Source: an uncultured virus (IMG/VR IMGVR_UViG_3300002097_000869)
Taxonomy: Duplodnaviria > Heunggongvirae > Uroviricota > Caudoviricetes
Virus record (IMG/VR): IMGVR_UViG_3300002097_000869
Coordinates: 62,001 to 126,000 of that record
Direction: 5' to 3' (one strand)
DNA length: 64,000 nucleotides
In this document: positions 19,013 to 59,034 of the stretch, piece by piece
Position numbering within the stretch: the stretch's first letter is position 1
Layout of the letters: the number at the start of each line of letters is the position of its first letter
Made by a program: the position numbers and the translations under genes
Notes under the pieces: generated by a model
The model's input: only the letters and a program-made list of their open reading frames with translations
What the model was told of the DNA's origin: nothing
Database searches by the model: none

Positions 19013-19171
19013 ATGCCTTTAGACAATTTGTACAAAGTAAACCAATCACTTATAGATCTTCAGAAATGTATGGAGAAACACAACGAAAGTTTGGTAAAAG
19101 AACTAAAGGACTTAAACTCTAATGTTAGGGAATTAGTTAAGGTCCTTGGAAAGAAGAAGGTTGAGAAGTAA
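19013..19171 (+). CDS. Small hypothetical protein (52 aa, below the ORF-track cutoff)
   Basis: AGGAGG RBS, ATG at 19013, MPLDNLYKVN..KKKVEK*. Confidence 0.65.
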   Translation: MPLDNLYKVNQSLIDLQKCMEKHNESLVKELKDLNSNVRELVKVLGKKKVEK

Positions 19172-40346: not shown

Positions 40347-41285
40347 TCACAGTTCCTCACTATGGAAAGCACACAGCCAGTTATCCTTGCTTTGCTTTCT
40401 TGTATCTTGGGTTTTTGCATTAATATAGCTGAGGTATCCCTCCATATCAGAATAACAATCTTCATAAGGATCTATATATTCAGTTTCCTTCTCTCCTTTT
40501 GGGGTCTCCTTTATGAGAGGGGGTTTCTCAGAAGTCTCTATTTTGGTTTTTGTATCTTGTAAGTTAAGATCTTTAATGTTTGTTGCCCAGGTTCTACCTA
40601 TTATATGTTGGTCTTCTACCTTGTCAACATCCAGACCATTAAGATTACAATGTTCGAAACCTATAGGTGTTATAGCTTGCGTCTTTTCGAATACTGTGCT
40701 TATGGCATTCAAAACATTAGTTACATAGGTATAGGTGGGGGTTGTACGTCTATTGAAAATACATTTTAGAAATTTTGTATCATCAAATATACAATTTACG
40801 AATCTTACCTGTGTGGTTCTATCTTCTTCTGAACTTCTGGGATCTACGATTCCGTCGAATACACATTTAAGAAAGGTGCACCTACGAAATATGCACCCAT
40901 CAAATCTTGTATGTTCAAATAAGCATTCCTCAAAAACACAATCTATAAATTGTGTGTCCGACCATATGGTGTTTAGGCCTATTTCGTTTTCCTTAAATAC
41001 ACACTTGTTAAAGAGAGTTTTGTTCGTAGTAAAACCCTCAAAATTTATTAAGAATAGTTCATTTGCCACCATATTTATGTCAGAAAAGTGGGTATCTCTT
41101 ATAGTAAGACTGGATAGCGTAGTTTTTTCCATACAGCTATTTGACAATAGACACGACTCTATAGTGAGTAATTCTATCTCGCTGTCTTCTAAATCTATAT
41201 CAGTTAATGTTTTCCCTACTATTAGATTGCCGGTAATATAAGCTTTCTTAGCAGTTAATCCTGAGAAGAGTTGGTTAATTTTCAT
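40347..41285 (-). CDS. Pentapeptide-repeat protein
   Basis: Five-residue periodicity (FIDCV FEECL FEHTR FDGCI FRRCT FLKCV). Confidence 0.8.
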   Translation of the reverse strand: MKINQLFSGLTAKKAYITGNLIVGKTLTDIDLEDSEIELLTIESCLLSNSCMEKTTLSSLTIRDTHFSDINMVANELFLINFEGFTTNKTLFNKCVFKENEIGLNTIWSDTQFIDCVFEECLFEHTRFDGCIFRRCTFLKCVFDGIVDPRSSEEDRTTQVRFVNCIFDDTKFLKCIFNRRTTPTYTYVTNVLNAISTVFEKTQAITPIGFEHCNLNGLDVDKVEDQHIIGRTWATNIKDLNLQDTKTKIETSEKPPLIKETPKGEKETEYIDPYEDCYSDMEGYLSYINAKTQDTRKQSKDNWLCAFHSEEL

Positions 41286-41977
41286 ATCAGGCCCCTGGAA
41301 CAGAATGAAACCATACCACGGTTTTCTATCTTGGGTATCGTTTTATTTATGACCGGTACTTTTTCATTATAAGTAGGGATGAGCCCATGAGTACTTAAAC
41401 AATGCTGTACAGTAAATGGAAGAGACCCATCTATGAAGTTATATTTGTTCTGCCTTGTTCTTACCTGGTTATATTCTGGGTATGTTTTACTAATTCTACT
41501 AAACCTACCTAGAGCAGTGTTAGGTAGGAAATCACAGAATTTGAATGCTGGCTTGTCCTTTTCTACCCATCGAGACATAGAAAAGTTGGTTCCAGATAGG
41601 GACGAATTTTTTATCTGGGTTTCTATGAATGAACATTTATTAAATAGACTATTTATAAAGGCACAGAGGTCGAAAACACACCTTATAAAGGTTATATTAT
41701 TGAATATACAGTCGTATATAATGGAGTTTTCTATGTGTGTATCTAAGATAACTCCATTTTGTATTCCAGAGTTTTTTGCATGTAAGCCTGAGATAATAGT
41801 ATCTTTTATAGCTATTTTATAAGCTAGGCTATTTGTAATATATGGAATATATATTTTACAGCTGCCTGCTTCTAGATCGCCTAACTGTTTTTTATCTGCC
41901 TCTAAAGCTTCGATTATCTTGCCTTTAATGACCTGTTTGTTTATCGTGATAGCTGTGGCTGTAGGATTTGTTCTCAT
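41282..41977 (-). CDS. Pentapeptide-repeat protein
   Basis: IENSI IYDCI FNNIT FIRCV FDLCA FINSL FNKCS. Confidence 0.8.
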   Translation of the reverse strand: MRTNPTATAITINKQVIKGKIIEALEADKKQLGDLEAGSCKIYIPYITNSLAYKIAIKDTIISGLHAKNSGIQNGVILDTHIENSIIYDCIFNNITFIRCVFDLCAFINSLFNKCSFIETQIKNSSLSGTNFSMSRWVEKDKPAFKFCDFLPNTALGRFSRISKTYPEYNQVRTRQNKYNFIDGSLPFTVQHCLSTHGLIPTYNEKVPVINKTIPKIENRGMVSFCSRGLI

Positions 41978-42008: not shown

Positions 42009-42830
42009 TTAGTTGGACATCAATCTTAGAAGGCTATCAGCATAGATAGTCGCTGTTGTGGAGCTTTCATCTGTGAGACAAGGAGTAGTGTTTATTTCTA
42101 AAACATAGGCTTGTTTGTTATCTTTTGAGTAAACAATATCTACTGCTCCATAATGTAGCTCAAATTTTTGTAGTGTTAATATGGATACCCTATTTATTAG
42201 GTCGATAACCTTAGGATCACTATATGAAGGGGCTAGAAAACTATAGCCATTGTCATGATTTTTTATAATAGAAGACTCCGTCTTTGTTGTGACTTTTTTT
42301 TCTGATAGTTTTGCTATGTAATAATCCTCAATTCTCTTAGGATTTAGTATGTTACTAAATACATGAGCCCTGAATTCCCTTGTATTTTTTATAAACTTTA
42401 TAAAATGAGTGGCCCCTTGTAGTTCGGCACTTCTAGCTTCTTTCATATTTTCGCAAAACCAGAATCCAGAGGCTTTCATATGATAGGTTGTTCTTCCTAT
42501 AACAGGGAACTCTGCTTTAGATATTTCTTTTGCACTAAGCCATAGTATAGGAGCAGGGATTCCCTTTGCTTTGAATCGTATTCTTGCTAGTCGTTTATTG
42601 GCACTAATTGCTATTTTAGAGGGATGGTTTATTATTGTAGGTTTACCTATAATAATAAATATGGAAGAATTTCCCACATTTACTATATAATCGAACTCCC
42701 TCCCTTTTATTCTTTTTCCATCAGGTATCCCCTGTAGAACTTCATTGTTTTTATCTGTTCCTTGTAAGGCAGTTACTAGGGCATTAGCAGACTGTGCTCC
42801 CTTTGCATTATGTAACACTAATATTTTCAT
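42009..42830 (-). CDS. ATP-grasp peptide ligase (phage/RimK-like)
   Basis: NK..A...F...GIPAP, FPVIGR, REFRAHVF, NHDNG, YGAVDIV, YVLEINTTP. Confidence 0.85.
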   Translation of the reverse strand: MKILVLHNAKGAQSANALVTALQGTDKNNEVLQGIPDGKRIKGREFDYIVNVGNSSIFIIIGKPTIINHPSKIAISANKRLARIRFKAKGIPAPILWLSAKEISKAEFPVIGRTTYHMKASGFWFCENMKEARSAELQGATHFIKFIKNTREFRAHVFSNILNPKRIEDYYIAKLSEKKVTTKTESSIIKNHDNGYSFLAPSYSDPKVIDLINRVSILTLQKFELHYGAVDIVYSKDNKQAYVLEINTTPCLTDESSTTATIYADSLLRLMSN

Positions 42831-43568: not shown

Positions 43569-44367
43569 TTGAAATAAGTCTGCATATTCTCGGATAAGCT
43601 AGGGGTGAGTTAGAATAAGTGCTATTATTGTAGGGAAGTAGGTCAGTTGTGCACATGCAAAAATTTAGTTCAAACGTACTCTTGTGGTCACAGTCAGAAC
43701 ATACTATGGTAAACTTATTTTCGTTTGTTACAGCTACTTCCACGTCTGATCTAAAAGTTAGAGTACTCCCACAATGGCTACATAGAGTATAAGCAGCACT
43801 AATTATAGAAGATACTATAAATTTGTGTTCTACTCCTTCCACAAAGGGTATTTCAGGAGGAGTAGTGTCCCAATTTGTGGCACAGTGGCCTCCAGCTTTT
43901 TTGTGATATTGATAGCCCACAAGCCTTTTTTGTATAAAATATTTTTGTATATAAATAGGAAATTTGCTAATATTTATTTCTCTTCTTATTGTTTCAAATC
44001 CACTTAAAATTTCCAATGGAACCACTATTGGAATAGTATTAAAACGCAGTAGGGATGGTGTTAATGAATAGTTAAGAGGGTATAAGAATATTTTTTCTTT
44101 ATACTCTTTTATAGGGCGAAATTCTTCCGGTAGAACGACAAAGATAATATGTTTCAGATTTTCTATTTCGGATTCTGCTAGGGTCATGACGAAGGAATCC
44201 AAAAGAGAGATAAGCTTTATATTTCCCTGGTTTTCTCGTATTGTTTCACCAAACTTTAATTCTTCTGATTTTATCTTGAGTATGGTTCCACTAAAAGGTC
44301 TAGCTATTTTTGTCACTTTTGTTACCACCTTTTTTATAGTCTGTAGTATACCAACCAGTACCGACAA
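43561..44367 (-). CDS. Hypothetical protein with C-terminal Zn ribbon
   Basis: CSHC..CSDC; start uncertain (overlaps the FmdB-like gene). Confidence 0.6.
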   Translation of the reverse strand: MSVLVGILQTIKKVVTKVTKIARPFSGTILKIKSEELKFGETIRENQGNIKLISLLDSFVMTLAESEIENLKHIIFVVLPEEFRPIKEYKEKIFLYPLNYSLTPSLLRFNTIPIVVPLEILSGFETIRREINISKFPIYIQKYFIQKRLVGYQYHKKAGGHCATNWDTTPPEIPFVEGVEHKFIVSSIISAAYTLCSHCGSTLTFRSDVEVAVTNENKFTIVCSDCDHKSTFELNFCMCTTDLLPYNNSTYSNSPLAYPRICRLISNE

Positions 44368-44509
44368 GATGAAATGAGGTCGCCTGTATTTGAATTCGCA
44401 TTTTTGACTTGCATTTAGGACAAACCTTGTCGTTTCTTTTATCTGATGCCTTTTGCTCTATTTCTCGTTCTCTACCACAATTTTCACACTTGAAAAGATA
44501 GAAAGGCAT
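44300..44509 (-). CDS. FmdB-family zinc-ribbon protein
   Basis: MPFYLFKCENCG..CPKC..F.L.GTGWY.TDY. Confidence 0.85.
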   Translation of the reverse strand: MPFYLFKCENCGREREIEQKASDKRNDKVCPKCKSKMRIQIQATSFHLVGTGWYTTDYKKGGNKSDKNS

Positions 44510-45582
44510 TAAATATCCTCCGAAAAGAAAACTCGTATAAACCTGTCTTTTTTCAAGGCGACTTCAAGAACTGGTTTTATATGTGACGGTAAAGGAATCG
44601 TAGTTTTACTTTCTAATCCAAAGCCTGAGTACGATACAGCCGATGCAATGTCTTTTTGGCAGGCTCTTATTTTCGTTGTTACACCACTAAATTTATAAGG
44701 ACATATTATAAGTTTAGCTTTCTCCGTATCTTCTATAATATTTCCCTCGCTACAAATAAGTTCTGATATAATAAAGTCTTTAAACACTGCTTCTTTCCCT
44801 ATTGTAGTACGAATAAGACTACAGGACACCGCCTTTACGTCCAGGATTTCACAGCCAACTATACCTGAGTCTACTATTTTGGTAAGTAAAAGCATACATT
44901 CCGATAAAGTAGACCCTACAAAAGATACTTTTGACAGGGTACAAAAAAAGAAGTCACACTCGTGTATCTCCACCTCATTGAGACTGAGATCGTCTATTGT
45001 GGACTTAAAAAATGTACAATCATAGAATATTATCTTACCGTTATATTTGTGTCTAGCATCATAGATTCTTTCACTAAATTCACAGGCTATAAATTTGCAA
45101 CCAGAAAAGGAAATAAACTCTATGTATTCAAAATCTGTAAAGGTACAATTAGCAAAGCTACAATTTATAAATTCTAATCCTGTGTTTGGGGAACATACTT
45201 GTGTAAACTCACAGTGGTCAAAATAGCAATCTCTATATTTACCCATAGTAGCCTGATGAGCACTAAGATAACAATCTGAGAACAGACAATTATAAAAATC
45301 TTCTTCTAAACTTGATAATAAACTAAAATCACATTTATCAAACGCTGTGTTCTCCTTACCATAATCAGACCAATTGTGTACACTTTTTTTACTTATGGTT
45401 TCATTCGTAATTATAAAGTCTTTTGTTAACTTTAATTTTTTATAGATATAGCCTTGCATGTGTGTTCTTGTTAACCTCTTTCTTGTGCTCCCATATAATA
45501 TAGCGTTTTGCTGTCCAGCAGCAATAGCGAACATACTAACCAAGCCATAGATAAGTTTCCTATAACATAAGAGCATCACCAA
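44509..45582 (-). CDS. Pentapeptide-repeat protein
   Basis: FINCS FANCT F.., FSGCK FIACE, FYDCT FFKST; the true start may be the internal Met of MQGYIY. Confidence 0.8.
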   Translation of the reverse strand: MVMLLCYRKLIYGLVSMFAIAAGQQNAILYGSTRKRLTRTHMQGYIYKKLKLTKDFIITNETISKKSVHNWSDYGKENTAFDKCDFSLLSSLEEDFYNCLFSDCYLSAHQATMGKYRDCYFDHCEFTQVCSPNTGLEFINCSFANCTFTDFEYIEFISFSGCKFIACEFSERIYDARHKYNGKIIFYDCTFFKSTIDDLSLNEVEIHECDFFFCTLSKVSFVGSTLSECMLLLTKIVDSGIVGCEILDVKAVSCSLIRTTIGKEAVFKDFIISELICSEGNIIEDTEKAKLIICPYKFSGVTTKIRACQKDIASAVSYSGFGLESKTTIPLPSHIKPVLEVALKKDRFIRVFFSEDI

Positions 45583-47649: not shown

Positions 47650-48636
47650 TTAGTGTGGGGCAAATTTTCTGCCTATTTCTATATAACCATTTTCTTTTAA
47701 GTATTCTACTCCTTTTTTGGATATTATCCTCCCTCTGCTAGTTCTTATAAGTAGACCTTGCTGTATAAGATACGGTTCTGTGCTATTTTGTATAGTTTCG
47801 GGGGATTCATTTAGCAATATAGATGTTGTATCAAGTCCTAGTGGAACCCCTGTTTCATACATAGTTTTTAAATATTTTATGTCAGTATATAATAGCCCAT
47901 TTTTGTCTATTCCTATAATATTAAAAACTGAGGAACATTCATCCATAGTTATAGTGTCTCTTTTTAACACCACAACAGCATCCCAAACACGATATAATAG
48001 GTTTACGACTATGCGAGGGACACCTCTTGCTCGAGAAGCGATAGCTTCCGCGGCATCTTGTGTTATCTGCATTTTATTTATTTCTGCATGTTTTATAGCT
48101 ATTTGTGTAGTTTCTTCTAGGTTATAGGTTTTGAAGTGAAAACCCATTCTAAATCTGTCCCTAAAAGGCTTTGATAGTTTACCGGCTAGCGTTGTAGCTC
48201 CTATGATAGTAAATTGTGGAACCCACATTTCCCAGTTTTCACCTGTGTATTGATTTTTTGTAACAATATAGTGTTCTTCCATTGCTATACCAAGAGACTC
48301 TTGTCCATTTGTTGGAAGCCTGTGTATTTCGTCCAAAAATATTATTGTTGGTTTGATTTTACTTACCTTTAATCCTTCTTTTGTGTATCCCTCTACAGAC
48401 AGTTTTTCTATGAGCTCATACACATCTTTAGATGTTTTTAGGCTCTCCGACGGAACCTTCAACATCCCTGCTCCTTGGTGTATAGCAAGAGCCTTCGACA
48501 TAGTGGTTTTTCCACATCCAGAGGCACCTGTAAATAGAGTATGCGGTATAGCCTCATTATTTATTCTTGCTGCCTCACTGGCTATTGTTAATTGTAGCTT
48601 TATATTATTATTCCCTATTATATCATTAAATCTCAA
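47650..48636 (-). CDS. ruvB: Holliday junction branch migration helicase RuvB
   Basis: HTLFTGASGCGKTT, FLDEIHRL, FTIIGATT.AG.LS.P.RDRF, RGVPR, EPYLIQ.G...RT.RGR. Confidence 0.93.
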   Translation of the reverse strand: MRFNDIIGNNNIKLQLTIASEAARINNEAIPHTLFTGASGCGKTTMSKALAIHQGAGMLKVPSESLKTSKDVYELIEKLSVEGYTKEGLKVSKIKPTIIFLDEIHRLPTNGQESLGIAMEEHYIVTKNQYTGENWEMWVPQFTIIGATTLAGKLSKPFRDRFRMGFHFKTYNLEETTQIAIKHAEINKMQITQDAAEAIASRARGVPRIVVNLLYRVWDAVVVLKRDTITMDECSSVFNIIGIDKNGLLYTDIKYLKTMYETGVPLGLDTTSILLNESPETIQNSTEPYLIQQGLLIRTSRGRIISKKGVEYLKENGYIEIGRKFAPH

Positions 48637-48645
48637 AATTTCCTC

Positions 48646-49098
48646 CTACTGATTTTGAACATTAACATTTGGTACCCACTTTGGGGCCGTTTTAATTAAG
48701 CAGAGAATTATTTTTTCATCCGTTTGGTATCCCCCCACTATCTTAAATCCAGCAGACCCAAATGTTTTTATCGACCCTTCGTTATCCCTTCTTACCATGG
48801 CATATATTAAGGGAGTCTGCGAGGACTTTATTCCGGCTTCCACTAATGTCTTCGCTATGCCTTGTTTTCTTAGCAACTCGGTTACACATAGGTGTTTCAA
48901 CTCGGTAATATTGTAAGATTGTTTATTTACTCTTATACATCCCACGACAATATTCTTGAATGTCTCTATTATGTATTCGTTTGAATTGCTTAGAATTTCG
49001 TCTATATCGTGGACGGTGCCCAGTTGGTTGTATTTATTTATTAGGGCAGTTATTTGTACGGCTATTTTTGTATCTGTTAGTATTCGTCTAAAGCTCAC
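48646..49098 (-). CDS. GNAT acetyltransferase
   Basis: ELKHLCV..RKQGIA, N.GS..F..AGF. Confidence 0.85.
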   Translation of the reverse strand: MSFRRILTDTKIAVQITALINKYNQLGTVHDIDEILSNSNEYIIETFKNIVVGCIRVNKQSYNITELKHLCVTELLRKQGIAKTLVEAGIKSSQTPLIYAMVRRDNEGSIKTFGSAGFKIVGGYQTDEKIILCLIKTAPKWVPNVNVQNQ

Positions 49099-50098
49099 TT
49101 AAACTTCCTAGATTGATAAGGCCGGCTTCTTTTAGTAGATCTGCTGCTTTCTTAGCATTGTCATCGGAAATATTACCTATCAGATTTAACAAAGATTCCT
49201 TGGAAAACTTACGACCAAATCTCAATATATTTCTAAAGTAATCTGACACAGTAAACAAAACCTCGCTATCTTGTAGGGAGGGTGAACACGTAGCATTCAT
49301 AATAAATACCCTGCCATCCTTGTCAGATACCAAATCGACAGCGGCGAAATCTAATCTGTATTTATTCTGTAAGATTTTTGCTATATTCATTATAGTAGTA
49401 TCTATACCTTCTTTTACAAATTGTTGTTCCGACCATGCAACAATGGCTTTTGTAGTGTCTTCTGTTATGAGTCCTTTTTCAAACATTTCGGTCAAGGCAG
49501 TCTTTACTTCTTCGCTTCTATTTAACATAAGAGTCTCTTTGTGGGAGAGTAATTTCTTAGATGAGGAGATTCTACCAAGTATATTGTTCCCCATTATATC
49601 ATGGCCGACGAATACTCGGTCAAAACCAGCCCTGTCAATGTGGTTGCAAGCAAAGGTAGCAGAGGGAATAGTCGTAGCTTGATTATAGTCGGTAGCATTT
49701 TTTATAACAGCTAACAAATCTCCTGACTTGGCTAGTATATCGAATTTTGTGCTACCAAAAAAGTCTCTCATACTAGTGTAGTTTCTATTAACTATCTTTC
49801 TATAATTACCGGTTAGTAATTCATGTTGAGTGCTTACGTCTGTTAGAAAAGCCTGTCTATGTGCAAGTAAGTCTGCCGAGCTTGGTAGATTGAACATCCT
49901 TGTTTCGTCTATTTCTACTCCCTCTGTATCCACCAATCCGTAAAAGATTATTTTAGTTTCCGGCTCTCGTATGATATTGCGAAGTTCCTCCGTTAATTCC
50001 GCGAAGGAACCAACGGCTATCTCGGCATCTACAGCCTGAGCTAAAAATATAGCAGAAGTGTCTACGGAGTGGGTACACCAAACTATTGTTGTTGACAT
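49088..50098 (-). CDS. Degenerate ATP-grasp-like protein
   Basis: LDFAAVDLV..DGRVFIMNATCSPSL resembles the ATP-grasp C-terminus but lacks the ExN motif. Confidence 0.55.
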   Translation of the reverse strand: MSTTIVWCTHSVDTSAIFLAQAVDAEIAVGSFAELTEELRNIIREPETKIIFYGLVDTEGVEIDETRMFNLPSSADLLAHRQAFLTDVSTQHELLTGNYRKIVNRNYTSMRDFFGSTKFDILAKSGDLLAVIKNATDYNQATTIPSATFACNHIDRAGFDRVFVGHDIMGNNILGRISSSKKLLSHKETLMLNRSEEVKTALTEMFEKGLITEDTTKAIVAWSEQQFVKEGIDTTIMNIAKILQNKYRLDFAAVDLVSDKDGRVFIMNATCSPSLQDSEVLFTVSDYFRNILRFGRKFSKESLLNLIGNISDDNAKKAADLLKEAGLINLGSLSEL

Positions 50099-50108
50099 CT
50101 CTTTGCTC

Positions 50109-51338
50109 CTAAAGGGATTTTCCGGCTAACCAACCGCGTTTAAGGTCTAATTGAGAGGCCTTTAATGGTACTTGTTTCCTGCAGCATATCTTTATAAACC
50201 CATCTATTTCACTCTTATATAAAGGATAGGTAGACATTTGTTTTAGTTTATTGTGTATGGATAAAACTAGGGAAGTTGGAACATCTGATATGGAAGAGTT
50301 ATTTACTATATTTCGTACATATTCTGTATCCATACAATCAAAGTATCTCTGTATATTGTTCTTATTGTCAACTAGCATTAAAAAATCTTTATTGTAATTG
50401 TTGTCTTCATATTTTTTCCATATTTCTTCAACCACTGCTTTTGTGGTTGCTATGGTAACCAAAGCAAGTGTTGGATGCACAAACCAGATTCCACTTGGAA
50501 CTCGCCATTCAAATTTTATGTCACCACTTCTCATTGCTCCAAAACAACCGTAGTCCTTTTCTTTTAGTCTGCGTTCCGAGGCTACTGGGGTATCCAATCT
50601 TACGAGAGGAAGAGCTACAAACTCGTCTAATATTCTTACTATTCTAGCTTGTATCATTTTATCCGGATGCTTTGCCCCACCTTCTATGTTTGGCAGGCCT
50701 AAATGAATGTGCCCTCCTATGTAATAACGACGGTCCATGTCTGGGTGCCAGAAACTAGCCCCACCCACCCAATCATAGTTTTCTATTTTGTGCCCCTCTG
50801 TTTCAAATATATTTTTCATGTTTTCTACTAGTTGCTTAGAGTTGTTACTAGGAGGCGGCCTCATTTCAGCGCAAGGACCATCACTACCCAGAACAGCCTG
50901 TTTTTTAGCCGGGTCATCAAATTCATATCCTAGACCATCATCTCCATATTCTGCCGTACCGTCTTTATTAACTAGAATGAACTCTGGGTCACATCCTATC
51001 ATTATTTTTTCAACTTGTTCAGAGACCCATATTTTTTTATATTTATCTATTTTTCCCATTATTTTATTATAGGTTTTTGTGGTCACAAACCCTATAGTTT
51101 TAGTATTTTCCATCCCTTCATTAGCAAGGTCTTCATTAATAGCTTGACCTATTTTTAATTTTATGTTTTCTAATACGCCTTCTACTTTTATATATGTAGT
51201 ATCTCCCCCTGATGGTCTATAATGTAATCGTGCTCTTTTAGAAAGTCTTATAAAATCATGCTCCAGTCTATTTCTTTCTGCTCGTAGATTCATTATTTCT
51301 GATGGTTTCAAAAATAATTGCATTTTTGTTTCCCGCAT
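50109..51338 (-). CDS. phiEco32-like COOH.NH2 ligase type 2
   Basis: IGCDPEF, GSDG..AEMRP, GGHIHLG, RR..YG..G..R, FEWRVPS. Confidence 0.85.
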   Translation of the reverse strand: MRETKMQLFLKPSEIMNLRAERNRLEHDFIRLSKRARLHYRPSGGDTTYIKVEGVLENIKLKIGQAINEDLANEGMENTKTIGFVTTKTYNKIMGKIDKYKKIWVSEQVEKIMIGCDPEFILVNKDGTAEYGDDGLGYEFDDPAKKQAVLGSDGPCAEMRPPPSNNSKQLVENMKNIFETEGHKIENYDWVGGASFWHPDMDRRYYIGGHIHLGLPNIEGGAKHPDKMIQARIVRILDEFVALPLVRLDTPVASERRLKEKDYGCFGAMRSGDIKFEWRVPSGIWFVHPTLALVTIATTKAVVEEIWKKYEDNNYNKDFLMLVDNKNNIQRYFDCMDTEYVRNIVNNSSISDVPTSLVLSIHNKLKQMSTYPLYKSEIDGFIKICCRKQVPLKASQLDLKRGWLAGKSL

Positions 51339-51355
51339 TATAAGTCTCCCAAAGA

Positions 51356-53215
51356 TTAGTTCATAGTTTTATTAGTTGGGGTCTTAAATACACTAAGATT
51401 CAATTCCTTAGCGGCACTAATTTCGTCTATGTCAAGGACGTCTGCTAGTTTATTCTCGTCAATTTGTCCAGTCTCTGCAAACAAATTTTGCTTAGATAAC
51501 AAAGCAGACAAAACTAATCGTAGATTCCGCACCAATTTAGTTGCGGATTCCAACTTGATATTTAATGATATTCTGTCTTCCGTATTTTTGAAGAAGGTCT
51601 TTTCCATACTGACTACTTTTATTTTGAGGTCTTCAACCTTCTTTTTCTCCTCAAGGGCTTCGTCTGCAGACACTGTTTCATATTCACTGGTGCCTTGTTC
51701 ATAACCTGCACTATAACCATATGCGTATCCTTCGGGAAAGATCTTTTCATAGCAAGCAACCAAAATCTTTAAGGCCTCTGTTTCATCTTCAATATCTACT
51801 AACCAGGACTTTAATAATTCTTTTACATCTACCTCGCCAATTTTCGCTATAGTAGCCTTACCTTCAGTTTCTATAGCAACACTATGTAAACACTCTAATC
51901 CAAAGGCTATTCGTTCATCCCAAGAATAGGAGCACGAAGGGTCGTCTTCCACTATTTCAGTTTCTATTTCTATATCCTCGTAAACATCCTCATTGTCTGC
52001 ACATATACCAGGCAAAGTTATCTCTAACAAACTTCCTTCCTCGTCTTTAGACTTATCTTCTATTGTGTTATTTCCACTAGGATAGGATGCATTAGTTTCG
52101 CTAGGAAAGGAGGTACTAAATTTTTCTGTAGCAGCCCTGGTATCCTTAGTTGCATTAGTTTTTACTCCATTGTCATATTTTGTGATAGTCTGTGGGGTAC
52201 CCCTAGCACAGCTGTATATTTTTTCTACTTTTATTAGATCCTCTGGTATTGTTTTGGAGTTTACTTCTGTATCCAAATCCAGTATGAAGACTCCTGATTC
52301 TATAGAGGAGGGACTGCTTACTGTCTTACCATACCAAGTCTTACTAAGGTAGGGAAAGACCTCCCCCACATTTCCTAGTTCTATTTTGGTACCCTCTTTA
52401 GTATTTACTATCATGCTAGTCTTGTATTCTCTATTACGCCAGCGGTCATAATTTTCCATGGCTGCTACTAAGTATTTTCTTTCCGATACCATAACCAAGC
52501 AACCTAATTCAGGGATATAGGCACCCTCCATGGGTTTTTGACCCTCCCTCAGGCAACCTACTTTGGATGGGTTCCCTGTTGTATAGGACATTACGGCAAA
52601 TTCCCCAATAAGTTCGTTGTGTGTAGTTTTTAAGTTTTCTATTGTAAAGTTGTTTTTATATTCTGCTATGAGTTGGAAAATAATTTCACTATCTACTTTT
52701 CCTATTCTTTCGATTCCATGTTTTGCAAATAAGGCATCATCATTGGATATACTACCGTTATGAACACCGACTATGGTATCTTGGGTTAATCTTTTGTTTT
52801 CTTTATCTAGATTTTTTGAAGTAATTATTACTGGGTGGTTGTTATGCGGATTATGTGGGTCCCCCTTCGTACTTTTTCTTACGTGTCCGAGGATTTGCTT
52901 TATTCTTTTCTCCCCAATTTTTCTAAACCACATATCCATAAACCAAGAAAAATTAGTTTCTTTATCCGTCGGATTTATATACTCGTCTCCCCAGCTACTA
53001 GGATCTCTAGCAAAGAAAGAGGAGGCTACTGGTTGTTTTACTATCAATGTTTTCTTATCTTCCCATAACAAAGCTACCCCAGTAGCGTCTGCTCCACGAG
53101 GTTCCATTGCTACCAAGGTTTCCAATAGTAGAAATCTTTGTATCAAGACCTCTACAATTGGGTCTATAGATTTTTCCGTATTGTTATATGAAAAAAGACC
53201 AAATATTCCGCACAT
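51356..53215 (-). CDS. Class II (Ntn) glutamine amidotransferase with acidic/coiled-coil C-terminal extension
   Basis: MCGIFG, RGADATG, GHVRKST, NNHP, HNGSI, VDSE. Confidence 0.88.
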   Translation of the reverse strand: MCGIFGLFSYNNTEKSIDPIVEVLIQRFLLLETLVAMEPRGADATGVALLWEDKKTLIVKQPVASSFFARDPSSWGDEYINPTDKETNFSWFMDMWFRKIGEKRIKQILGHVRKSTKGDPHNPHNNHPVIITSKNLDKENKRLTQDTIVGVHNGSISNDDALFAKHGIERIGKVDSEIIFQLIAEYKNNFTIENLKTTHNELIGEFAVMSYTTGNPSKVGCLREGQKPMEGAYIPELGCLVMVSERKYLVAAMENYDRWRNREYKTSMIVNTKEGTKIELGNVGEVFPYLSKTWYGKTVSSPSSIESGVFILDLDTEVNSKTIPEDLIKVEKIYSCARGTPQTITKYDNGVKTNATKDTRAATEKFSTSFPSETNASYPSGNNTIEDKSKDEEGSLLEITLPGICADNEDVYEDIEIETEIVEDDPSCSYSWDERIAFGLECLHSVAIETEGKATIAKIGEVDVKELLKSWLVDIEDETEALKILVACYEKIFPEGYAYGYSAGYEQGTSEYETVSADEALEEKKKVEDLKIKVVSMEKTFFKNTEDRISLNIKLESATKLVRNLRLVLSALLSKQNLFAETGQIDENKLADVLDIDEISAAKELNLSVFKTPTNKTMN

Positions 53216-53230
53216 GTACGAGGGACTCCT

Positions 53231-53905
53231 TTATCCGAGGTCCAAGGGGATTTCTGTAGAATATTCTGGGCAAAAAGATTCGACCCAAAAAAATTCTTTT
53301 AATCCGTGGTTTGTAAATATGATATCACCTAGAGAAAGGGAAGTTGAATTTTTACGGTATAGTTTAGCCCATATGCCTTCGCATTTTTGCCATTCTTCAC
53401 AAAGTACGTCCTCTGTTCTGGATAGAGATAACAAAATATTAATTGGATCCTTTACAGAATTAAGCCCCTCTTTGTCCCAAAAAAGTACGTAGGTATTTCT
53501 ATACTTTTTTCTTAGAGTCGGCAGTATCATTTTTTTTATTTTTGCAAGGTCTTTCACTATCGTGTAGTCTTTATATAGGGGTAAAATAGCCTCTATGTCG
53601 GTGTATTCTACTAGATAACATGTAAACTTTTTGTAGCTGACCTTTTGTAATTCTTCAGTCTTAATTGTCTGGTATACGTATTTATTGTGGGGAACTTTAG
53701 TGGCAATAGGTAAAGAATGAGGAAAGAATACCAATGTTTCAGATTGTTTTTTATAGTCCGTAGTAAAACCCAAAGGTGAAGCTATACAGGAGTTAGTCAG
53801 TGCACTATTATCATAGACAGCAATTATATCTATATTATTAAACGGAAATGGGTATGGATATATTAGTTTGGTCCCTAATTTTAGATTTGGCAGTAGGGAA
53901 GGCAT
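53231..53905 (-). CDS. Hypothetical protein
   Basis: Operon ORF between the amidotransferase genes. Confidence 0.55.
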   Translation of the reverse strand: MPSLLPNLKLGTKLIYPYPFPFNNIDIIAVYDNSALTNSCIASPLGFTTDYKKQSETLVFFPHSLPIATKVPHNKYVYQTIKTEELQKVSYKKFTCYLVEYTDIEAILPLYKDYTIVKDLAKIKKMILPTLRKKYRNTYVLFWDKEGLNSVKDPINILLSLSRTEDVLCEEWQKCEGIWAKLYRKNSTSLSLGDIIFTNHGLKEFFWVESFCPEYSTEIPLDLG

Positions 53906-54747
53906 TTTTCAACCCAATCGGATGAATAGCCTTTGGTAGTCATAGGCTCAAGAATAAGGGCCTCATTTTTCTTTAGGAGGATTTCTTGAGCATCTAAGAA
54001 TATATGCCCCGCTTTATTAGTGTCTATGCCTATAATAGTGTCATTTAATAGTTGTTCATTGTTTGATATGAAGACTAAGTCCTGCCATTTCTTTGTTTTT
54101 ATTGTCAGATTATCCGATTTTTTTGCGATAAATAGTCTAATTGTGTCTGTAGCAAACACTATATAAAAATAGTTACCATGACATATAGAGGCAGCCTTCT
54201 TAAAGGCTTCTTTTATAGGTGCTCCTTCTACAATGAACTTTCCTGTCAAAGCGAGAACCAAATCAACTTTGCTGGGTAATGTTTGTAGGTTTATACGATA
54301 TTGCTTGGCTATTTTTTCTACGGATTTAATATTACCCATGCCAAACCCTATCATATTACCCATTTTTATAGGGGCTGTTTCTTTGTGGGTTTCTTTTGTT
54401 AGTATTCCGGCTATCAATGCAGTTGGGTTAATTATATCATTGTTTATTATATTTAAGAACTTGAGGTTATCTACTAGTTTTCCTTTAGAAAGAATTTCTT
54501 TTATAGTAATTAGTCCTGTTTTGTATGGTCTGACAGAGTTGGCATTTTGAAAGATGGAATTAGTACTATGGAGAGTAGAATTAAATACAGATAAGGAGCA
54601 TAGTGGATTTTCCATGCCAAGTAAAGCAATGTTAAAGAAGGTTTTTATCACAGTTTGCTTATCAGTAGCTGGGGAAGATTGAACAGCATGGGTATATTCT
54701 TTGGGCTTAGACAAACAAATGAGTAGGGTGGTGTTATGGTCGTACAT
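53881..54747 (-). CDS. Probable degenerate class II amidotransferase-fold protein
   Basis: PI..GFGMGNI, AA..CHGNY..VF..RLFIAK..L, LVFIS..L follow the Ntn layout; no N-terminal Cys. Confidence 0.4.
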   Translation of the reverse strand: MYDHNTTLLICLSKPKEYTHAVQSSPATDKQTVIKTFFNIALLGMENPLCSLSVFNSTLHSTNSIFQNANSVRPYKTGLITIKEILSKGKLVDNLKFLNIINNDIINPTALIAGILTKETHKETAPIKMGNMIGFGMGNIKSVEKIAKQYRINLQTLPSKVDLVLALTGKFIVEGAPIKEAFKKAASICHGNYFYIVFATDTIRLFIAKKSDNLTIKTKKWQDLVFISNNEQLLNDTIIGIDTNKAGHIFLDAQEILLKKNEALILEPMTTKGYSSDWVEKCLPYCQI

Positions 54748-56338
54748 ATGTACCTGACTCTTTATCCCAAATTACGCCGTTGGTTGTTTGTAAATATAAA
54801 ATCCCAAGTTTTACTTGTTCTGTTTTAGCTCCTATAATTTCACTAACAGTGCTTATCCACTCTAGTTCGTTAGAACACTCATCAATAAGGGCGGTATCTA
54901 TTGTTTCTGAGATTTTATCAAGAACTATCTTACTTATTTTGTTTTTGTTCTTCACTAAATCTTTTTCTATCTTGTCCCAAGAGTCGCCTTCACTTAACCT
55001 ATACGAACAAGGTCGCTCGGCTAATTCTAGTAGTATGTTAAAGGAATTTCCGTGTCCTCTAAGTTCCGGCTTTAATAGATTAACCATCTCTTTTGCTTGT
55101 AATCTAACCTTTTCCACGTAGGGTTCAAAGTTCTTGGTATTACTATGTCTAGGTCCCCCATAGTCTCCATAATTGTTTAAAAGTTTTTCTTGTATTTCAC
55201 TTGCCTCATCCATATAGTCTGTATCGCCACTATGTAAAATACCATAGGTACTGAAAGACACGGCCTTTATAAGTAGCGAATATACAAGGAGGGATATTGC
55301 TGTTATAGCGGAAGGGGACAGCAGGCCATCACAGAAGCGGGCTTCTAGGTGTAGTTTTTCTATAGCTTCTTTGGAATCAAATTCTATATTGGAGTAGTTT
55401 ATAAAAGAATATCTGCCCTTGGTGCCATCTGACTCGCTTATTTCTTTTATAATAGATTTCATATTTCTACGTAGAGCGGAAAACTTTAGTATTGTGTGTC
55501 TGAATTTTGCCCATCTAGTAAGAGTATCCTTGGAAGTACCCGCAGAGGAGATCCAAACTAGGGCATTATGGTAACGTCTGATAAGTTGGTGAAAGTTTGT
55601 CAATATAATTTCCGGCATAGCTCTTTCGAGTTCTATTATATTATGTTTATTATTGACTCCCTTTTTGTATATTGGTATCACTTCCCCCCTATCGTTGAAA
55701 CCAATATTATAGTATCCTGATAAAAGATGTATGTGGGTGCTAGCTCTTTCATCTACGTAAGCACCCTTAGCTATACATTTGTCTATAATATTCTTTGTTT
55801 GTTCTAATAACATATCGTAGCTTACTCTCCTACCCACCGTTGTAACTTCAACGCCTCCGTCTCCCTTTAAGCTGCCATCTTTTACGATTTGGAATACTCC
55901 GTTATCGCCAATCTTAAGAAGGTTTTCCGATGGAGTCAGTTCCTTAACAAGCTTAGCTCGTACATGGGAGGGATTTTTATTCTCGTCCAGAAAGAGGGCA
56001 CATTTGGTACAGTCCCTTATGGCATCCTTGCATGTAAAGCAAGGAGAGTAAAATTCCACGCAGTATATTCCTGGGCATTCATATTTTTGTCTTAGAGTAC
56101 AATGCTTATAGGAAGCACATTTGGTGAAACACTTGGAGTTTTCTTTTTGGGGATGAGAGCACGGGCATAGAAAGCTCTTACCATTACAGTTGCCTGTTTT
56201 TTCTAGCAGGTTTAGTTCGTGTTCGAGCCCTATTTTTAGAGTAGCTTCCAATATTCTTTTCCAATAATTAGCTTCCTCCGATAGCAAACAGGGCCTGTTC
56301 TTTTTCTTTGTGAATACTAACTTCTGATTTTGTTTCAT
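54734..56338 (-). CDS. Putative amidoligase (glutamine synthetase/GCS-like fold) with Cys-rich insert
   Basis: KIGLEHE, DGSL..GVEVTT, STHIHL, RY..IN, LEARF.DG. Confidence 0.8.
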   Translation of the reverse strand: MKQNQKLVFTKKKNRPCLLSEEANYWKRILEATLKIGLEHELNLLEKTGNCNGKSFLCPCSHPQKENSKCFTKCASYKHCTLRQKYECPGIYCVEFYSPCFTCKDAIRDCTKCALFLDENKNPSHVRAKLVKELTPSENLLKIGDNGVFQIVKDGSLKGDGGVEVTTVGRRVSYDMLLEQTKNIIDKCIAKGAYVDERASTHIHLLSGYYNIGFNDRGEVIPIYKKGVNNKHNIIELERAMPEIILTNFHQLIRRYHNALVWISSAGTSKDTLTRWAKFRHTILKFSALRRNMKSIIKEISESDGTKGRYSFINYSNIEFDSKEAIEKLHLEARFCDGLLSPSAITAISLLVYSLLIKAVSFSTYGILHSGDTDYMDEASEIQEKLLNNYGDYGGPRHSNTKNFEPYVEKVRLQAKEMVNLLKPELRGHGNSFNILLELAERPCSYRLSEGDSWDKIEKDLVKNKNKISKIVLDKISETIDTALIDECSNELEWISTVSEIIGAKTEQVKLGILYLQTTNGVIWDKESGTYVRP

Positions 56339-57392
56339 GTTTCAACCATTTAAGTATGAGTGGTGCCTCGTGCTCCTCGGGTTTATAACTTATGTTTTGC
56401 ATATATTCACCAGCTAGGTTGCCAATATTTTCTTCTATTTTTTTCATTTCTTCTTTCATCTTATTCTTATTTCTACTGTAGTACATATCTTGTACTTTAG
56501 TTGTATCTGGTAATTTATATAGTTTAGCTATGTAATCTTTGTCAGATATTTTTTCTGTTCTTTTCCAAGCAAGGCTTTCTTTATAAACTGTGTTTAGGAT
56601 GTTTTCCATAAGGACAAAAGAAGTTGTTAGTAGGCTTAGTGCAAGTCGTGGGGACTTCAAATAATATCCCCCTGGGGTTCTATACTCCAAAGTTCTTCTA
56701 CTTAAGCGGTAGTCTCCTAACTTGCCATAATCTTTTGACAATCTTCTACTATCATTGCTATCTATAAAAGCACTTGGAATACCAATATAGTAATCTAATA
56801 TGGACACCATATTCTTTATTATTTTATCAGTGTTATTTGGGGCAAATAGAAGAAGGTCTTCAGGAAGACCAAGGTGAACGTGAAAACCACATACACGATT
56901 ATACAGACAAGACCCCGCAATGGGAAACAAGCCTTTCGGTAGTGTAGTATAAATTTTTAATACTTGGTTTTTTAGATTTTCCAGGTGCTGCTCCGGAGAT
57001 AAAGCAAAATCTGGACGTAATTCCCCTAATTCGCCATCACACCCTATTTGGCTGTCGAATGGAAGGACGGAAGAGGCATCTACTAATGTTCCTTTACGAT
57101 TTACAATAAAGAATTCAGGGTCGGACCCTATTGTTAGATCGTGCTTCTCTATATATATGTTTTTTCCTGGATTGTATATTATAGGGGATAATACGTTGAC
57201 AAATATATTCTTATTCCCGTGAGAGACAATATCTTCTTTTATAGCAGGGCAAACTAATAAACTAAATTTTCCAACCGCGGTATCAAATATTAACCAATCA
57301 CCATGGTCGATACCATAAGATAGCATTATTTCTCTTGGTACTCTAACCTGGTGCATTGCGCATGAAGTAGACGGAACAGCAGTAAGAAACAT
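56268..57392 (-). CDS. phiEco32-like COOH.NH2 ligase type 2, second paralog
   Basis: IGSDPEF, GCDG..GELRP, GFHVHLG, RR..YGK.GDYR, LEYRTP. Confidence 0.87.
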   Translation of the reverse strand: MFLTAVPSTSCAMHQVRVPREIMLSYGIDHGDWLIFDTAVGKFSLLVCPAIKEDIVSHGNKNIFVNVLSPIIYNPGKNIYIEKHDLTIGSDPEFFIVNRKGTLVDASSVLPFDSQIGCDGELGELRPDFALSPEQHLENLKNQVLKIYTTLPKGLFPIAGSCLYNRVCGFHVHLGLPEDLLLFAPNNTDKIIKNMVSILDYYIGIPSAFIDSNDSRRLSKDYGKLGDYRLSRRTLEYRTPGGYYLKSPRLALSLLTTSFVLMENILNTVYKESLAWKRTEKISDKDYIAKLYKLPDTTKVQDMYYSRNKNKMKEEMKKIEENIGNLAGEYMQNISYKPEEHEAPLILKWLKHETKSEVSIHKEKEQALFAIGGS

Positions 57393-57409: not shown

Positions 57410-58777
57410 TTAATGATAACGAATTAACATATTTTTCTGTTCGTAAGCAGCTTTCCTTTTCCAGAATTGATTTTTAAACATTTTTATATTGTCTACATAA
57501 TCGTAGACAATAGCATTTTCTTTTCCTTCCAACGGTCTCTCAATCCTGCCAGTTGACTGAACTATTAGGCTAGAACTCTTTAGGGGGGCGGCGAGAAATA
57601 AGCGACTTGAAGGTTTATAATTAAAACCCTCAGCTAGAAGGCCATAGGTTACTATAAGTATTTTTGTTTCTCCAGAGAGAAACCCTTCTATCTGTTTATC
57701 CCTAATCTTATTTGTCTGTTTGGAATGCGGAGAAGCAACAGTTATCCCCAAACTATTAAAGATATCTGTTAGAATATCTATATGTTTAGTGGTAACAGTT
57801 AATACCATACAGGTATTTTCTAGACCATACTCATATAGTATATCTGATACTATGAGATTGTTTCTTCTTTCATTAGTAGAAATATATTCTATTAGATCTG
57901 CATAGTTGGCTCCCCATAACTTCTTCGTAGCGGTAATTTCAGTATAGTGTACTAAGACAGAAGAATTTATTATTCTATTTGCATCTACTGCATCCTTATG
58001 CTTTATTGTTGTTACTACTGGTCCTATGTAATTAAACATCAAAGGATCTAATCCATCTTCTCTATACGGGGTAGCTGTAATTCCATATAAAAATCTAGGA
58101 GAAAATCCACAGATAACCTTTAAGAAAGTAGAGGAAGGAACATGTTGGCATTCATCAACAAGTATTAATCCAAAAGAATATTTAAGTTCTTTTATTAGTT
58201 CTTTGTTACGAACTAGTGTGGGAACCATACCTATAGTAAGTATATCCCCAAGTGCCTTCTTACTCTCTCCTATAATTCCTATTTTTCCTACTTCTATAAA
58301 TTTCTCTATCTCTTTCTTAACTTGTTTAACAAGGGGCCCCCTATGAGTTAGCCATAGTGTGGGTAACCCTAGTCTGGCTATGACTTCCAAAGCCATTACA
58401 GTTTTTCCACTTCCTGCGGGGGCTATGCCAATACCCTGTCGGTGGGAAACTAAACTCTCAACCCAGGGTATTTGTATAGGTTCCAACTTTATGTTATTAT
58501 TTATTAATCTTTTACTGAAATTGGCGGTAGTGTCTTCTATAACATTTATACTATTAGTTATTTCTGTAGCCCTATAGAGATAGCCTCTAGGAACTATTAT
58601 GCCTTCGGTTATTTCTGAATATTGTTTTATGAATTTTGGTATACCGAAGGTTCGTCTGCCAAATTGTATAGCAGATTTCCACGCAGGATTCGGGAAGGTT
58701 AGGTCTTTTCTAAATTGGTCTAGTTCAGTTTTTGATATGTTTGTTATAGTTAAGTCTTTGTCAATTTTGACATCCAT
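57410..58777 (-). CDS. SF2 DEAD/DEAH-box helicase (UvsW-like)
   Basis: APAGSGKT, DECQH, TATPYREDG, LAEGFN, QSTGRIER, YDYVD; ATG at 58777. Confidence 0.92.
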   Translation of the reverse strand: MDVKIDKDLTITNISKTELDQFRKDLTFPNPAWKSAIQFGRRTFGIPKFIKQYSEITEGIIVPRGYLYRATEITNSINVIEDTTANFSKRLINNNIKLEPIQIPWVESLVSHRQGIGIAPAGSGKTVMALEVIARLGLPTLWLTHRGPLVKQVKKEIEKFIEVGKIGIIGESKKALGDILTIGMVPTLVRNKELIKELKYSFGLILVDECQHVPSSTFLKVICGFSPRFLYGITATPYREDGLDPLMFNYIGPVVTTIKHKDAVDANRIINSSVLVHYTEITATKKLWGANYADLIEYISTNERRNNLIVSDILYEYGLENTCMVLTVTTKHIDILTDIFNSLGITVASPHSKQTNKIRDKQIEGFLSGETKILIVTYGLLAEGFNYKPSSRLFLAAPLKSSSLIVQSTGRIERPLEGKENAIVYDYVDNIKMFKNQFWKRKAAYEQKNMLIRYH

Positions 58778-59034
58778 CAAATCTTCAACGCGAGTACCCC
58801 GAGCTTTAGCTCTGGGGAGGAAGCGCTCCTCCTTGTTGTATTAGTAAAGTTTTACGACCTTTTAACCAAACAGTAGTCATGGCTTTAGGTCACTTATGAT
58901 TCGTAATTAGCTGGTTTGTTATCCCCAGTCTTCCTAGATTTTACTTGAGTAATGCTTTGGCTTTCCTTTTTTGGAATTATTTCCTAGTAAGCAAGGACTT
59001 GAAAGCCCCCGTTTTTAGGCGGGGGGTTATTTAT
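58778..59034 (-). mobile_element. Non-autonomous 257-bp internally deleted derivative (MITE-like) of the IscB element
   Basis: Minus strand keeps the left end (ATAAATAACCCCCCGCCTAAAAACGGGGGCTTTCAAGTCCTTGCTTACTAGG), three short iscB fragments and the right end (CTTCCTCCCCAGAGCTAAAGCTCGGGGTACTCGCGTTGAAGATTTG). Confidence 0.88.

Follow-up and report, generated by a model that had tools for sequence, protein, structure and literature searches.

Bacteriophage phiEco32 is the prototype of the Pfam family PF14395, "Phage phiEco32-like COOH.NH2 ligase-type 2", and phage neighborhoods that combine amidoligase, amidotransferase, and ATP-grasp genes were reportedly analyzed and predicted computationally by Iyer, Abhiman, Burroughs, and Aravind in 2009. 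The phiEco32 record (EU330206) carries on one strand gp88 and gp87 (no family), gp86 (PF14395), gp85, gp84 (PF12224), gp83, which is a class II glutamine amidotransferase (GATase), two small open reading frames (ORFs), the ATP-grasp gp80, and gp77, of the gamma-glutamylamine cyclotransferase type (GGACT; 63.8 bits), with a primase/helicase a few genes on. Here, we describe a cluster of this kind in a stretch of 64,000 nucleotides (the window), which spans positions 62001-126000 of a 133-kb IMG/VR virus record (IMGVR_UViG_3300002097_000869) whose completeness was judged to be 58%. The eight-gene amide-ligase cluster occupies the minus strand at 48646-57392 and encodes two PF14395 ligases, a third ligase of 534 aa, an apparently dead amidotransferase-like protein, an ORFan, an intact GATase, a degenerate ATP-grasp, and an N-acetyltransferase of the Gcn5-related type (GNAT). 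Profile comparisons of gp86, gp83, and gp80 with the corresponding families here (hhalign 97-99%) indicate that the cluster is an expanded relative of the phiEco32 gp80-gp86 neighborhood, a kinship that an initial annotation of the window, made from its letters alone, had already proposed. Three intact glutamine synthetase (GS)-fold ligases are found together with an intact ATP-grasp, an N-terminal nucleophile (Ntn) enzyme, and a GNAT, so multi-step amide ligation is the simplest reading. With somewhat more confidence than doubt, we favor a module for serial ATP-dependent amide ligation on what may be a protein or peptide acceptor, with amidation or trimming and an acetyl cap. The kind of system is known already and is itself uncharacterized; new here are the predicted barrel-fused type-2 ligases, a GS-fold family with a Cys-rich insert, the uncultivated jumbo-phage lineage, and the evidence on which parts are catalytic. 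The cluster and its separate ATP-grasp comprise the following features:

56268-57392, minus strand: lig374, type-2 COOH-NH2 ligase (GS/GCS2 superfamily) with an N-terminal double-psi beta-barrel (PF14395, phrog_3815)
57141-57392, minus strand: predicted double-psi beta-barrel of the Cdc48/p97/VAT N-domain type, lig374 residues 1-84 (structure model)
54734-56338, minus strand: amd534, predicted GS-fold carboxylate-amine ligase outside Pfam, with a helical C-terminal part (fold, invariant residues)
56030-56161, minus strand: Cys-rich insert of amd534, residues 60-103 (eight invariant Cys)
53881-54747, minus strand: u288, apparently dead class II GATase-like (Ntn) pseudoenzyme (hhalign; motifs replaced)
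53231-53905, minus strand: u224, ORFan at a variable position of the cluster (no relatives found)
51356-53215, minus strand: gat619, class II (Ntn) GATase domain, about residues 1-290, with an acidic C-terminal half (GATase_6)
50109-51338, minus strand: lig409, second type-2 COOH-NH2 ligase with an N-terminal barrel, about residues 2-108 (PF14395)
49088-50098, minus strand: u336, degenerate ATP-grasp (hhalign; Mg site lost)
48646-49098, minus strand: gnat150, GNAT acetyltransferase (Acetyltransf_1)
42009-42830, minus strand: grasp273, intact RimK-like ATP-grasp (phrog_2599; L-E-I-N motif)

The likeness to phiEco32 extends over most of the neighborhood. The ligase gp86 aligns with both lig374 and lig409 (hhalign 97-98%), gp84 is an amidoligase-type GS-fold ligase as amd534 appears to be, the class II GATase is long in both phages (676 aa in gp83 and 619 aa in gat619), and gp80 is a RimK-like ATP-grasp that matches the family found within the cluster here (hhalign 99.4%). 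In both cases, the genes lie on one strand among early and replication genes, and the phage encodes its own sigma factor. In contrast, phiEco32 has a single type-2 ligase, gp86, which starts at the ligase core and lacks a barrel, whereas there are two such ligases here and both carry one. The amidoligase partner gp84 belongs to PF12224, whereas amd534 represents another family, outside Pfam and with an eight-Cys insert; the window also has an additional stand-alone GATase-like gene (apparently dead) and a GNAT. The phages themselves differ, phiEco32 being a 77-kb podovirus (Kuravirus) and the phage here a jumbo phage whose closest contigs are 248-259 kb. Among the neighborhoods compared, this lineage keeps the largest version of the amidoligase/amidotransferase/ATP-grasp arrangement. 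Full-text searches of the literature recovered genome papers that list these genes and papers from the Aravind laboratory that cite the 2009 analysis, and in these searches no experimental product or target was found, in keeping with the initial annotation, which had called the phiEco32-type product uncharacterized. The passages of a jumbo-phage review (PMC7824862) that match the search terms do not describe the cluster.

All eight minus-strand genes of the initial annotation were recovered where it had placed them, in the same order and with neighbors that overlap or abut. The overlaps are 71, 14, 25, and 11 nt, the gaps are 15, 17, and 10 nt, and the next gene lies 9 nt beyond. No terminator-like sites were found on the minus strand between the cluster genes; those detected lie inside coding sequence, and their count is near that of shuffled sequences. 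A promoter scan was uninformative (69 found versus 67 expected). The cluster is probably a co-transcribed enzyme module. The gene assignments of the initial annotation stand, with corrections for two members, u288 and u336, that are detailed below.

Conservation of the cluster was assessed in loci retrieved with an amd534 alignment, which yielded 11 loci in IMG/VR, 183 in metagenomes (of which the best 80 were used), and 6 contigs from metagenome-assembled genomes (MAGs). An ORF labeled amd534 was present in 88 of the 91 tblastn-positive viral and metagenome loci, 6 duplicates were dropped, and each gene was counted only in loci with enough flank. The initial annotation had tied its proposal to co-occurrence of these genes in other genomes, and they were found together in every locus that could be tested. 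All 11 IMG/VR loci share one order (helicase, lig374, amd534, GATase, lig409, GNAT, RuvB). Among testable loci, lig374 is present in 60 of 60, an ORF at the position of u288 (termed X) in 64 of 64, the large amidotransferase equivalent to gat619 in 42 of 42, and lig409 in 38 of 38; the ATP-grasp position is occupied in 35 of 35. The GNAT is present in 32 of 34 (missing from loci L019 and L023), and a variable gene, Y, in 36 of 42. The same order recurs in all related loci with enough flank, and the arrangement is far beyond chance. The identity of amd534 to its relatives is only 32-52%, and the shared order therefore does not reflect recent common descent; an invariant order at this level of identity argues for strong selection and a coherent pathway.

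The cluster belongs to an uncultivated jumbo-phage lineage. A metagenome contig of 247.6 kb (L014) matches the whole cluster at 100% identity, and contigs with u224 reach 258.5 kb. There are also three complete genomes of relatives, with lengths of 268.8, 295.8, and 297.7 kb; one of these has terminal repeats. No similar deposited phage was found among 50,697 phage records by megablast of the region or by tblastn of lig409, amd534, and a short amd534-type ligase from locus L101. The six MAG contigs with the module (L095-L100) are binned to Stahlbacteria, Muribaculaceae, Woesearchaeota, Altiarchaeales, and Deltaproteobacteria. Inference of a host from these matches was rejected, the phyla being unrelated and the contigs most likely mis-binned phage. 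In 30 of 33 testable loci, the GNAT and RuvB are separated by a conserved gene of about 250 aa (up to 417 aa), termed Z (e.g., L003:18234-18986), which is missing from the phage of the window. The Y proteins (10 of 10) and Z proteins (6 of 6) of related loci matched no Pfam or NCBIfam family.

Both type-2 ligases named by the initial annotation match PF14395 well above its cut-off of 25 bits (lig374, 74 bits, 1.4e-20, with a further match to phrog_3815; lig409, 85.3 bits, 5.1e-24), and both PF14395 matches were recovered again in a search of the whole record. With the proteins of the window as reference sequences for the alignments, D91-P92-E93, D119/E124/R126, H171/H173, and E236/R238 of lig374 are invariant across 34 relatives, and the catalytic residues of lig409 are invariant across 39 family members. 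We take these to be the GS/GCS2-type motifs of PF14395, namely an acidic strand-1 motif, D...E-x-R-P, H-x-H, and E-x-R. Residues 1-84 of lig374, modeled alone from 34 sequences, gave a confident structure (predicted local distance difference test, pLDDT, 91.2) with a double-psi beta-barrel fold. Its nearest Foldseek matches are the N domains of VAT, CDC48/p97, Pex1, and a mycobacterial AAA ATPase (template modeling, TM, score by query 0.70-0.74), and the match to the Cdc48/VAT N-type fold spans the whole domain. The N terminus of lig409 is homologous to this barrel (hhalign 98.4%, E 4.8e-15). Judging from these models and alignments, a barrel fused to both PF14395 ligases is a newly recognized feature. 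By analogy with AAA N domains, the barrels would bind protein, and their occurrence on both ligases modestly favors a protein or peptide as the acceptor. The initial annotation had offered the host wall, proteins, and a nucleotide as destinations for a non-ribosomal peptide or amidated tag.

The third ligase, amd534, had been called an amidoligase, an assignment that is borne out by its predicted fold. It has zero matches in Pfam (even with E up to 10), PHROG, or NCBIfam, and a sequence-profile search of the PDB with its family returned chance-level matches only. An AlphaFold (AF2) model built from 26 homologues (pLDDT 85) was compared with the PDB using Foldseek and matched GS (5.5e-5), PafA (4bjr_A, 1.6e-4), Dop (9cku_G, 1.2e-3), and YbdK (TM-score by target 0.50); gamma-glutamylmethylamide synthetase (GmaS) and 1-naphthylamine GS were also among the matches, which ranged overall from 5.5e-5 to 2e-3. 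TM-scores by query were low (0.25-0.35), as expected of a multi-domain model. Against BFVD, the top matches (E down to 4.9e-6) were mostly named "amidoligase enzyme". The family keeps E39/E41, D154/E164/R171, H202/H204, and E332/R334 invariant (E-x-E, D...E...R, H-x-H, and E-x-R). From its modeled fold, amd534 is best described as a GS/PafA/YbdK-type ligase that resembles viral amidoligases. Membership in PF12224 (Amidoligase_2) was not found, since only 2 of 26 family members reach E 0.035 or weaker and none of 18 remote relatives match. Eight cysteines of the insert (C60, C70, C74, C80, C88, C93, C100, and C103) are invariant in 26 sequences; the insert, which was modeled at pLDDT <50, presumably binds metal. 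The C-terminal part is helical and possibly winged-helix-like in the model, the resemblance being weak (TM 0.37-0.44) and below the tool's own bar. Only 268 representative clusters among 1.84 billion match the family at E <=0.001, and one subfamily of about 430 aa lacks the Cys insert. We conclude that amd534 founds a small, newly recognized GS-fold family outside Pfam, distinguished by an eight-Cys insert.

An insert-less relative of 433 aa was observed without the other cluster genes on L101, a 44.8-kb contig of a small phage. In this arrangement (8926-10937, plus strand), it directly follows an Amidase_3 endolysin, with an M14 carboxypeptidase further upstream, and is followed by a 71-aa ORF and then by a GGACT gene (35.8 bits, cut-off 22.8).

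The two amidotransferase-like proteins differ in their state of preservation. The class II GATase assignment of gat619 is confirmed by a GATase_6 match (36.4 bits, cut-off 27) and by its start, M-C-G-I-F-G, which places Cys at the N-terminal nucleophile position. C2, R113, N126-H127-P128, H152-N153-G154, and D175/E177 are invariant in 43 sequences; these positions correspond to the nucleophile and glutamine-site motifs of class II enzymes. The C-terminal portion of about 330 residues is acidic (net charge -27) and poorly conserved, and the idea that it forms a synthase domain was set aside as unsupported, there being no family match. The gene u288 had been called amidotransferase-like. Its homology was upheld by alignment with the X family of equivalent position, a stand-alone class II GATase (hhalign 94%, E 1.4e-7, 160 residues), whereas a working enzyme is not indicated: Cys1, H-x-R-x-x-T-x-G, NNHP, HNG-x-I-x-N, and D-S-E are all replaced, there is no Pfam match, and u288 reads as a pseudoenzyme. 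Elsewhere, X proteins were class II amidotransferase domains by Pfam in 5 of 5 tested, and the M-C-x-I start is kept in 64 of 70 distinct sequences; in the other 6, which include that of the window, the stand-alone Ntn partner is dead or can be dispensed with. For u224, the only match among 5.8 billion clusters was u224 itself; tblastn and phmmer searches of related loci found no match, hhalign to the position-equivalent Y proteins gave 7%, and the ESM Atlas score of 0.80 is at chance level.

The presence of GS-fold and glutaminase domains could also be taken to mean that the genes serve auxiliary nitrogen metabolism, making or consuming glutamine for the infected cell, and phage genome papers often label amidoligase and GATase genes as auxiliary metabolic (PMC10580990). 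We find this hardly credible: no ligase matches a glutamine synthetase family by sequence, gat619 has no recognizable synthase domain, and glutamine turnover would require neither an ATP-grasp and a GNAT nor a set of three paralogous ligases that carry additional binding domains.

A free small molecule is a more substantial alternative as the substrate. The module would then make or inactivate, for example, a short peptide amide in free form or an amine or polyamine that bears a gamma-glutamyl group, with GS-like ligases adding glutamate, Ntn enzymes removing it, and the GNAT acetylating, in a protecting-group or detoxification logic. GmaS, 1-naphthylamine GS, and YbdK, to which the amd534 model is matched, are all small-molecule ligases. 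Pairs of a GS-like ligase and a glutamine-type amidohydrolase act on ergothioneine (EgtA/EgtC), putrescine (PuuA/PuuD), and isopropylamine (IpuC/IpuF), and GmaS with N-methylglutamate synthase forms another gamma-glutamylation pair; amd534 beside X and gat619 beside lig409 are arranged alike. The GGACT genes near relatives and the lack of a tag gene within the cluster fit as well. However, the known pairs belong to bacterial catabolic or cofactor pathways for small amines, and their other enzymes are not present here. The ligases of the cluster carry extra domains of a macromolecule type, large in the case of amd534, and two of the three bear the Cdc48-N-like barrel, a domain best known for protein binding; the stand-alone Ntn partner can also be dead or dispensable, as it is in the window, and this too speaks against such chemistry. 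On these grounds, a small-molecule product is a real but minor possibility.

The initial annotation had listed an ATP-grasp-like gene within the cluster and an intact ATP-grasp at 42009. Homology of the former, u336, to the in-cluster ATP-grasp family was confirmed (hhalign 96.7%, E 3.8e-10, 263 residues), whereas an intact Mg site was not: the Glu-x-Asn motif reads Asn-x-Thr, and the only Pfam match is ATPgrasp_YheCD at E 0.088. The latter, grasp273, matches phrog_2599 (3.1e-29) and the in-cluster family (hhalign 99.2%) with its L-E-I-N motif intact. Because u336 has lost the Mg-binding residues, grasp273 is probably the working ATP-grasp partner of the cluster. Comparison with related loci is consistent with this assignment. 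Glu-x-Asn is kept in 30 of 38 distinct in-cluster ATP-grasps and lost in 8 (u336 and 7 others), and a separate, canonical grasp273 orthologue was found in each of the five degenerate lineages open to testing, namely, those of the window and L019 and the L008, L009, and L013 genomes. These orthologues are about 290 aa long and lie a few kb downstream, with matches of E 1e-48 to 1e-51 in three IMG/VR genomes; in two genomes with a canonical in-cluster ATP-grasp, that enzyme was the only strong match. The numbers are small, and this apparent compensation still links the gene at 42009 to the cluster and suggests that the pathway requires ATP-grasp activity. Both grasp273 and the in-cluster ATP-grasps match the rimK_fam, MptN, and RimK models of alpha-L-glutamate ligases (RimK/LysX/MptN), and the canonical members resemble those enzymes in keeping Glu-x-Asn; they differ in that scores fall under the curated cut-offs (for grasp273, Pfam RimK 15.3 bits with a cut-off of 21, and NCBIfam matches far below theirs) and in the eight in-cluster members without the Mg site. 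The GNAT call was confirmed for gnat150 (Acetyltransf_1, 31.3 bits, cut-off 20.7; Acetyltransf_10, 28.7 bits, cut-off 23.6), whose R-K-Q-G-I-A stretch reads as the acetyl-CoA motif or loop.

Weak matches of the ATP-grasps to D-Ala-D-Ala ligase-type enzymes speak for the proposal that the module modifies peptidoglycan precursors or another envelope component, for example by amidation or by extra amino acids in the stem peptide, and thereby excludes superinfecting phages. MurT/GatD, a ligase and amidotransferase pair that amidates lipid II, would be a precedent, and the short L101 ligase has an endolysin and a carboxypeptidase for neighbors. The idea that amidoligase and GATase modify the cell wall and block superinfection in phiEco32 is also found in PMC10580990, which credits Iyer et al. 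2009. However, searches of the cluster genes revealed no Mur ligase and no transporter, and neither signal peptides nor domains for wall binding were detected among them. The module is located with the replication and transcription genes rather than in a lysis or structural block, and MAG assignments are spread over unrelated phyla. An envelope target is thus improbable.

The chemistry of the favored reading, amide ligation on a protein or peptide, follows from what these superfamilies do. Acyl-phosphate formation and the joining of a carboxylate to an amine are common to GS-fold ligases and ATP-grasps, the amide of glutamine or of N5-substituted glutamines is the bond that class II amidotransferase domains hydrolyze, and acyl transfer to amines is the reaction of GNATs. 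From this superfamily knowledge, we infer that lig374, amd534, lig409, and grasp273 would each use ATP to turn a carboxylate into an acyl-phosphate and couple it to an amine. Acting together, they would assemble a short amide-linked moiety or attach it to an acceptor, and glutamyl or gamma-glutamyl residues would most likely abound in it; gat619 would supply ammonia from glutamine for carboxylate amidation or trim gamma-glutamyl amides, and the GNAT would add an acetyl cap to a free amine. According to PMC4431377, successive peptide ligations are what ATP-grasp, COOH-NH2 ligase, and GNAT genes usually catalyze when they are linked. The RimK-type ATP-grasp and the GGACT genes near relatives (phiEco32 gp77 and L101) suggest glutamyl or gamma-glutamyl units. 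What the acceptor is and which purpose the module serves are matters of speculation; by analogy with the Cdc48-N-like barrels, a protein or peptide would be a better candidate than a free metabolite.

A more specific version can be put forward tentatively: the module may be a phage protein-conjugation machine, a viral counterpart of pupylation or polyglutamylation, in which the barrels grip proteins and a glutamyl or gamma-glutamyl tag is attached, extended by the ATP-grasp, amidated or edited by the amidotransferase, and capped by the GNAT, rewiring the function of host or phage proteins early in infection. The likeness to PafA/Dop pupylation lies in the GS-like carboxylate-amine ligase fold predicted for amd534, the occurrence of paralogous ligases in one locus, and a plausible glutamine or glutamate amide step. 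The two systems differ in that there is no relation at the sequence level, no Pup-like gene in the cluster, and no proteasome or Mpa-type partner identified; deamidation here would fall to an Ntn amidotransferase and not to a Dop-type paralogue. No small ORF that could encode a pupylation-type tag fits in the cluster, and a tag gene elsewhere was not searched for. Should a protein prove to be the acceptor, the cluster would represent a novel type of system by which a virus modifies proteins post-translationally. The barrels, the non-Pfam ligase family, and the ATP-grasp compensation indicate which proteins to purify, which domain could serve as acceptor bait, and where the catalytic core lies.

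Several observations weigh against amide ligation on a protein or peptide. No result identifies a substrate, product, or acceptor, and the cluster contains no small tag-like ORF (intergenic gaps <=17 nt). The double-psi fold by itself is no proof of protein binding, and lower-ranked matches of the barrel include RNA polymerases, molybdoenzymes, aspartate decarboxylase, and expansins. A GGACT gene, present in phiEco32, was not found in the 133-kb record (58% complete), and its association with the L101 ligase is a single case. With u288 and u336 degenerate, the pathway here may differ from the clade consensus. The shared order could in part represent general synteny of the phage clade rather than a functional link, and the helicase and RuvB are equally conserved neighbors. 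The module also sits among replication genes (helicase, RuvB, a single-stranded DNA-binding protein [SSB], and a sigma factor), and this position, like the Cys cluster and weak winged-helix-like tail of amd534, fits a nucleic-acid target as well.

Modification of DNA, RNA, or a nucleotide, such as the placing of an amide or amino-acid adduct on a base, would account for the conserved place of the module between an XPB/RadD-like helicase and RuvB, near the SSB, the sigma factor, and a CCA-adding-type enzyme, and double-psi barrels occur in nucleic-acid enzymes too. Against this, no glycosylase, transglycosylase, base hydroxymethylase, or kinase of known hypermodification pathways was seen in the window, its ThyX-type thymidylate synthase and dUTPase suggest ordinary thymidine, and the winged-helix similarity falls short of the threshold noted above. 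We know of no GS-fold ligase that acts on DNA, and we regard such a target as very unlikely.

In transcription order, the genes of this region are the XPB/RadD-like helicase, lig374, amd534, u288, u224, gat619, lig409, u336, gnat150, and the RuvB homologue. Downstream of RuvB follow the sigma factor, a CCA-adding/HD enzyme, pentapeptide-repeat proteins, a zinc-ribbon protein, two unknowns, and grasp273. The neighbors discussed here are:

57410-58780, minus strand: XPB/RadD-like helicase, directly upstream of lig374
47650-48636, minus strand: RuvB homologue (NF000868 match)
44300-44509: zinc-ribbon protein beside the ATP-grasp region (FmdB-type Zn_ribbon_8 match)

The phage-encoded RuvB homologue is near full length and scores 250 bits to NF000868, slightly below the cut-off of 282. 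It is kept directly downstream of the ligase cluster in 38 loci, and no RuvA was noticed nearby. A LysW/LysX-like role was considered for the zinc-ribbon protein and rejected: LysW ends in an acidic tail, whereas the C-terminal tail of this protein is basic, and its match is of the FmdB type. Three pentapeptide-repeat proteins are encoded downstream of the cluster on the minus strand (40347-41285, 41282-41977, and 44509-45582), with homologues in L019. A strong GC-rich hairpin at 59006-59025 (8 pairs, 6 of them G-C) lies within the 260-nt gap upstream of the helicase gene, and a terminator-like site is found on the minus strand at 45610-45592. The two may delimit a transcription unit of 13 genes, with the helicase as its first gene and the CCA-adding enzyme as its last.

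The coding strand flips at ~40.3 kb of the window. The plus-strand half encodes DNA polymerase I, ribonucleotide reductase, a ThyX-like thymidylate synthase, dUTPase, PhoH, a Lon-like protease, a prohead protease, and many HNH homing endonucleases. The Lon-like ATP-dependent protease (28056-29987, plus strand; phrog_4871, 3.4e-95) might have a bearing on the ligase cluster, should the latter tag proteins. At least eight HNH or endonuclease VII-type homing-endonuclease genes are scattered on the plus strand among replication and nucleotide-metabolism genes (155-1573, 11269-12153, 15886-17289, 19146-19829, 25339-26601, 29997-31382, 34201-35016, and 38936-39664), an unusually dense set in which several are paralogous (phrog_119, phrog_559/681, and phrog_1035). 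Some of them may split the genes that host them, such as that of the DNA polymerase (8796-10661, with an exonuclease subunit at 23315-23887). Two nucleotide-sugar epimerase-like genes and a dehydrogenase (3281-4231, 7865-8788, and 17286-18344, plus strand; phrog_540 and phrog_9582) also lie amid the replication genes and may belong to a sugar-modification pathway.

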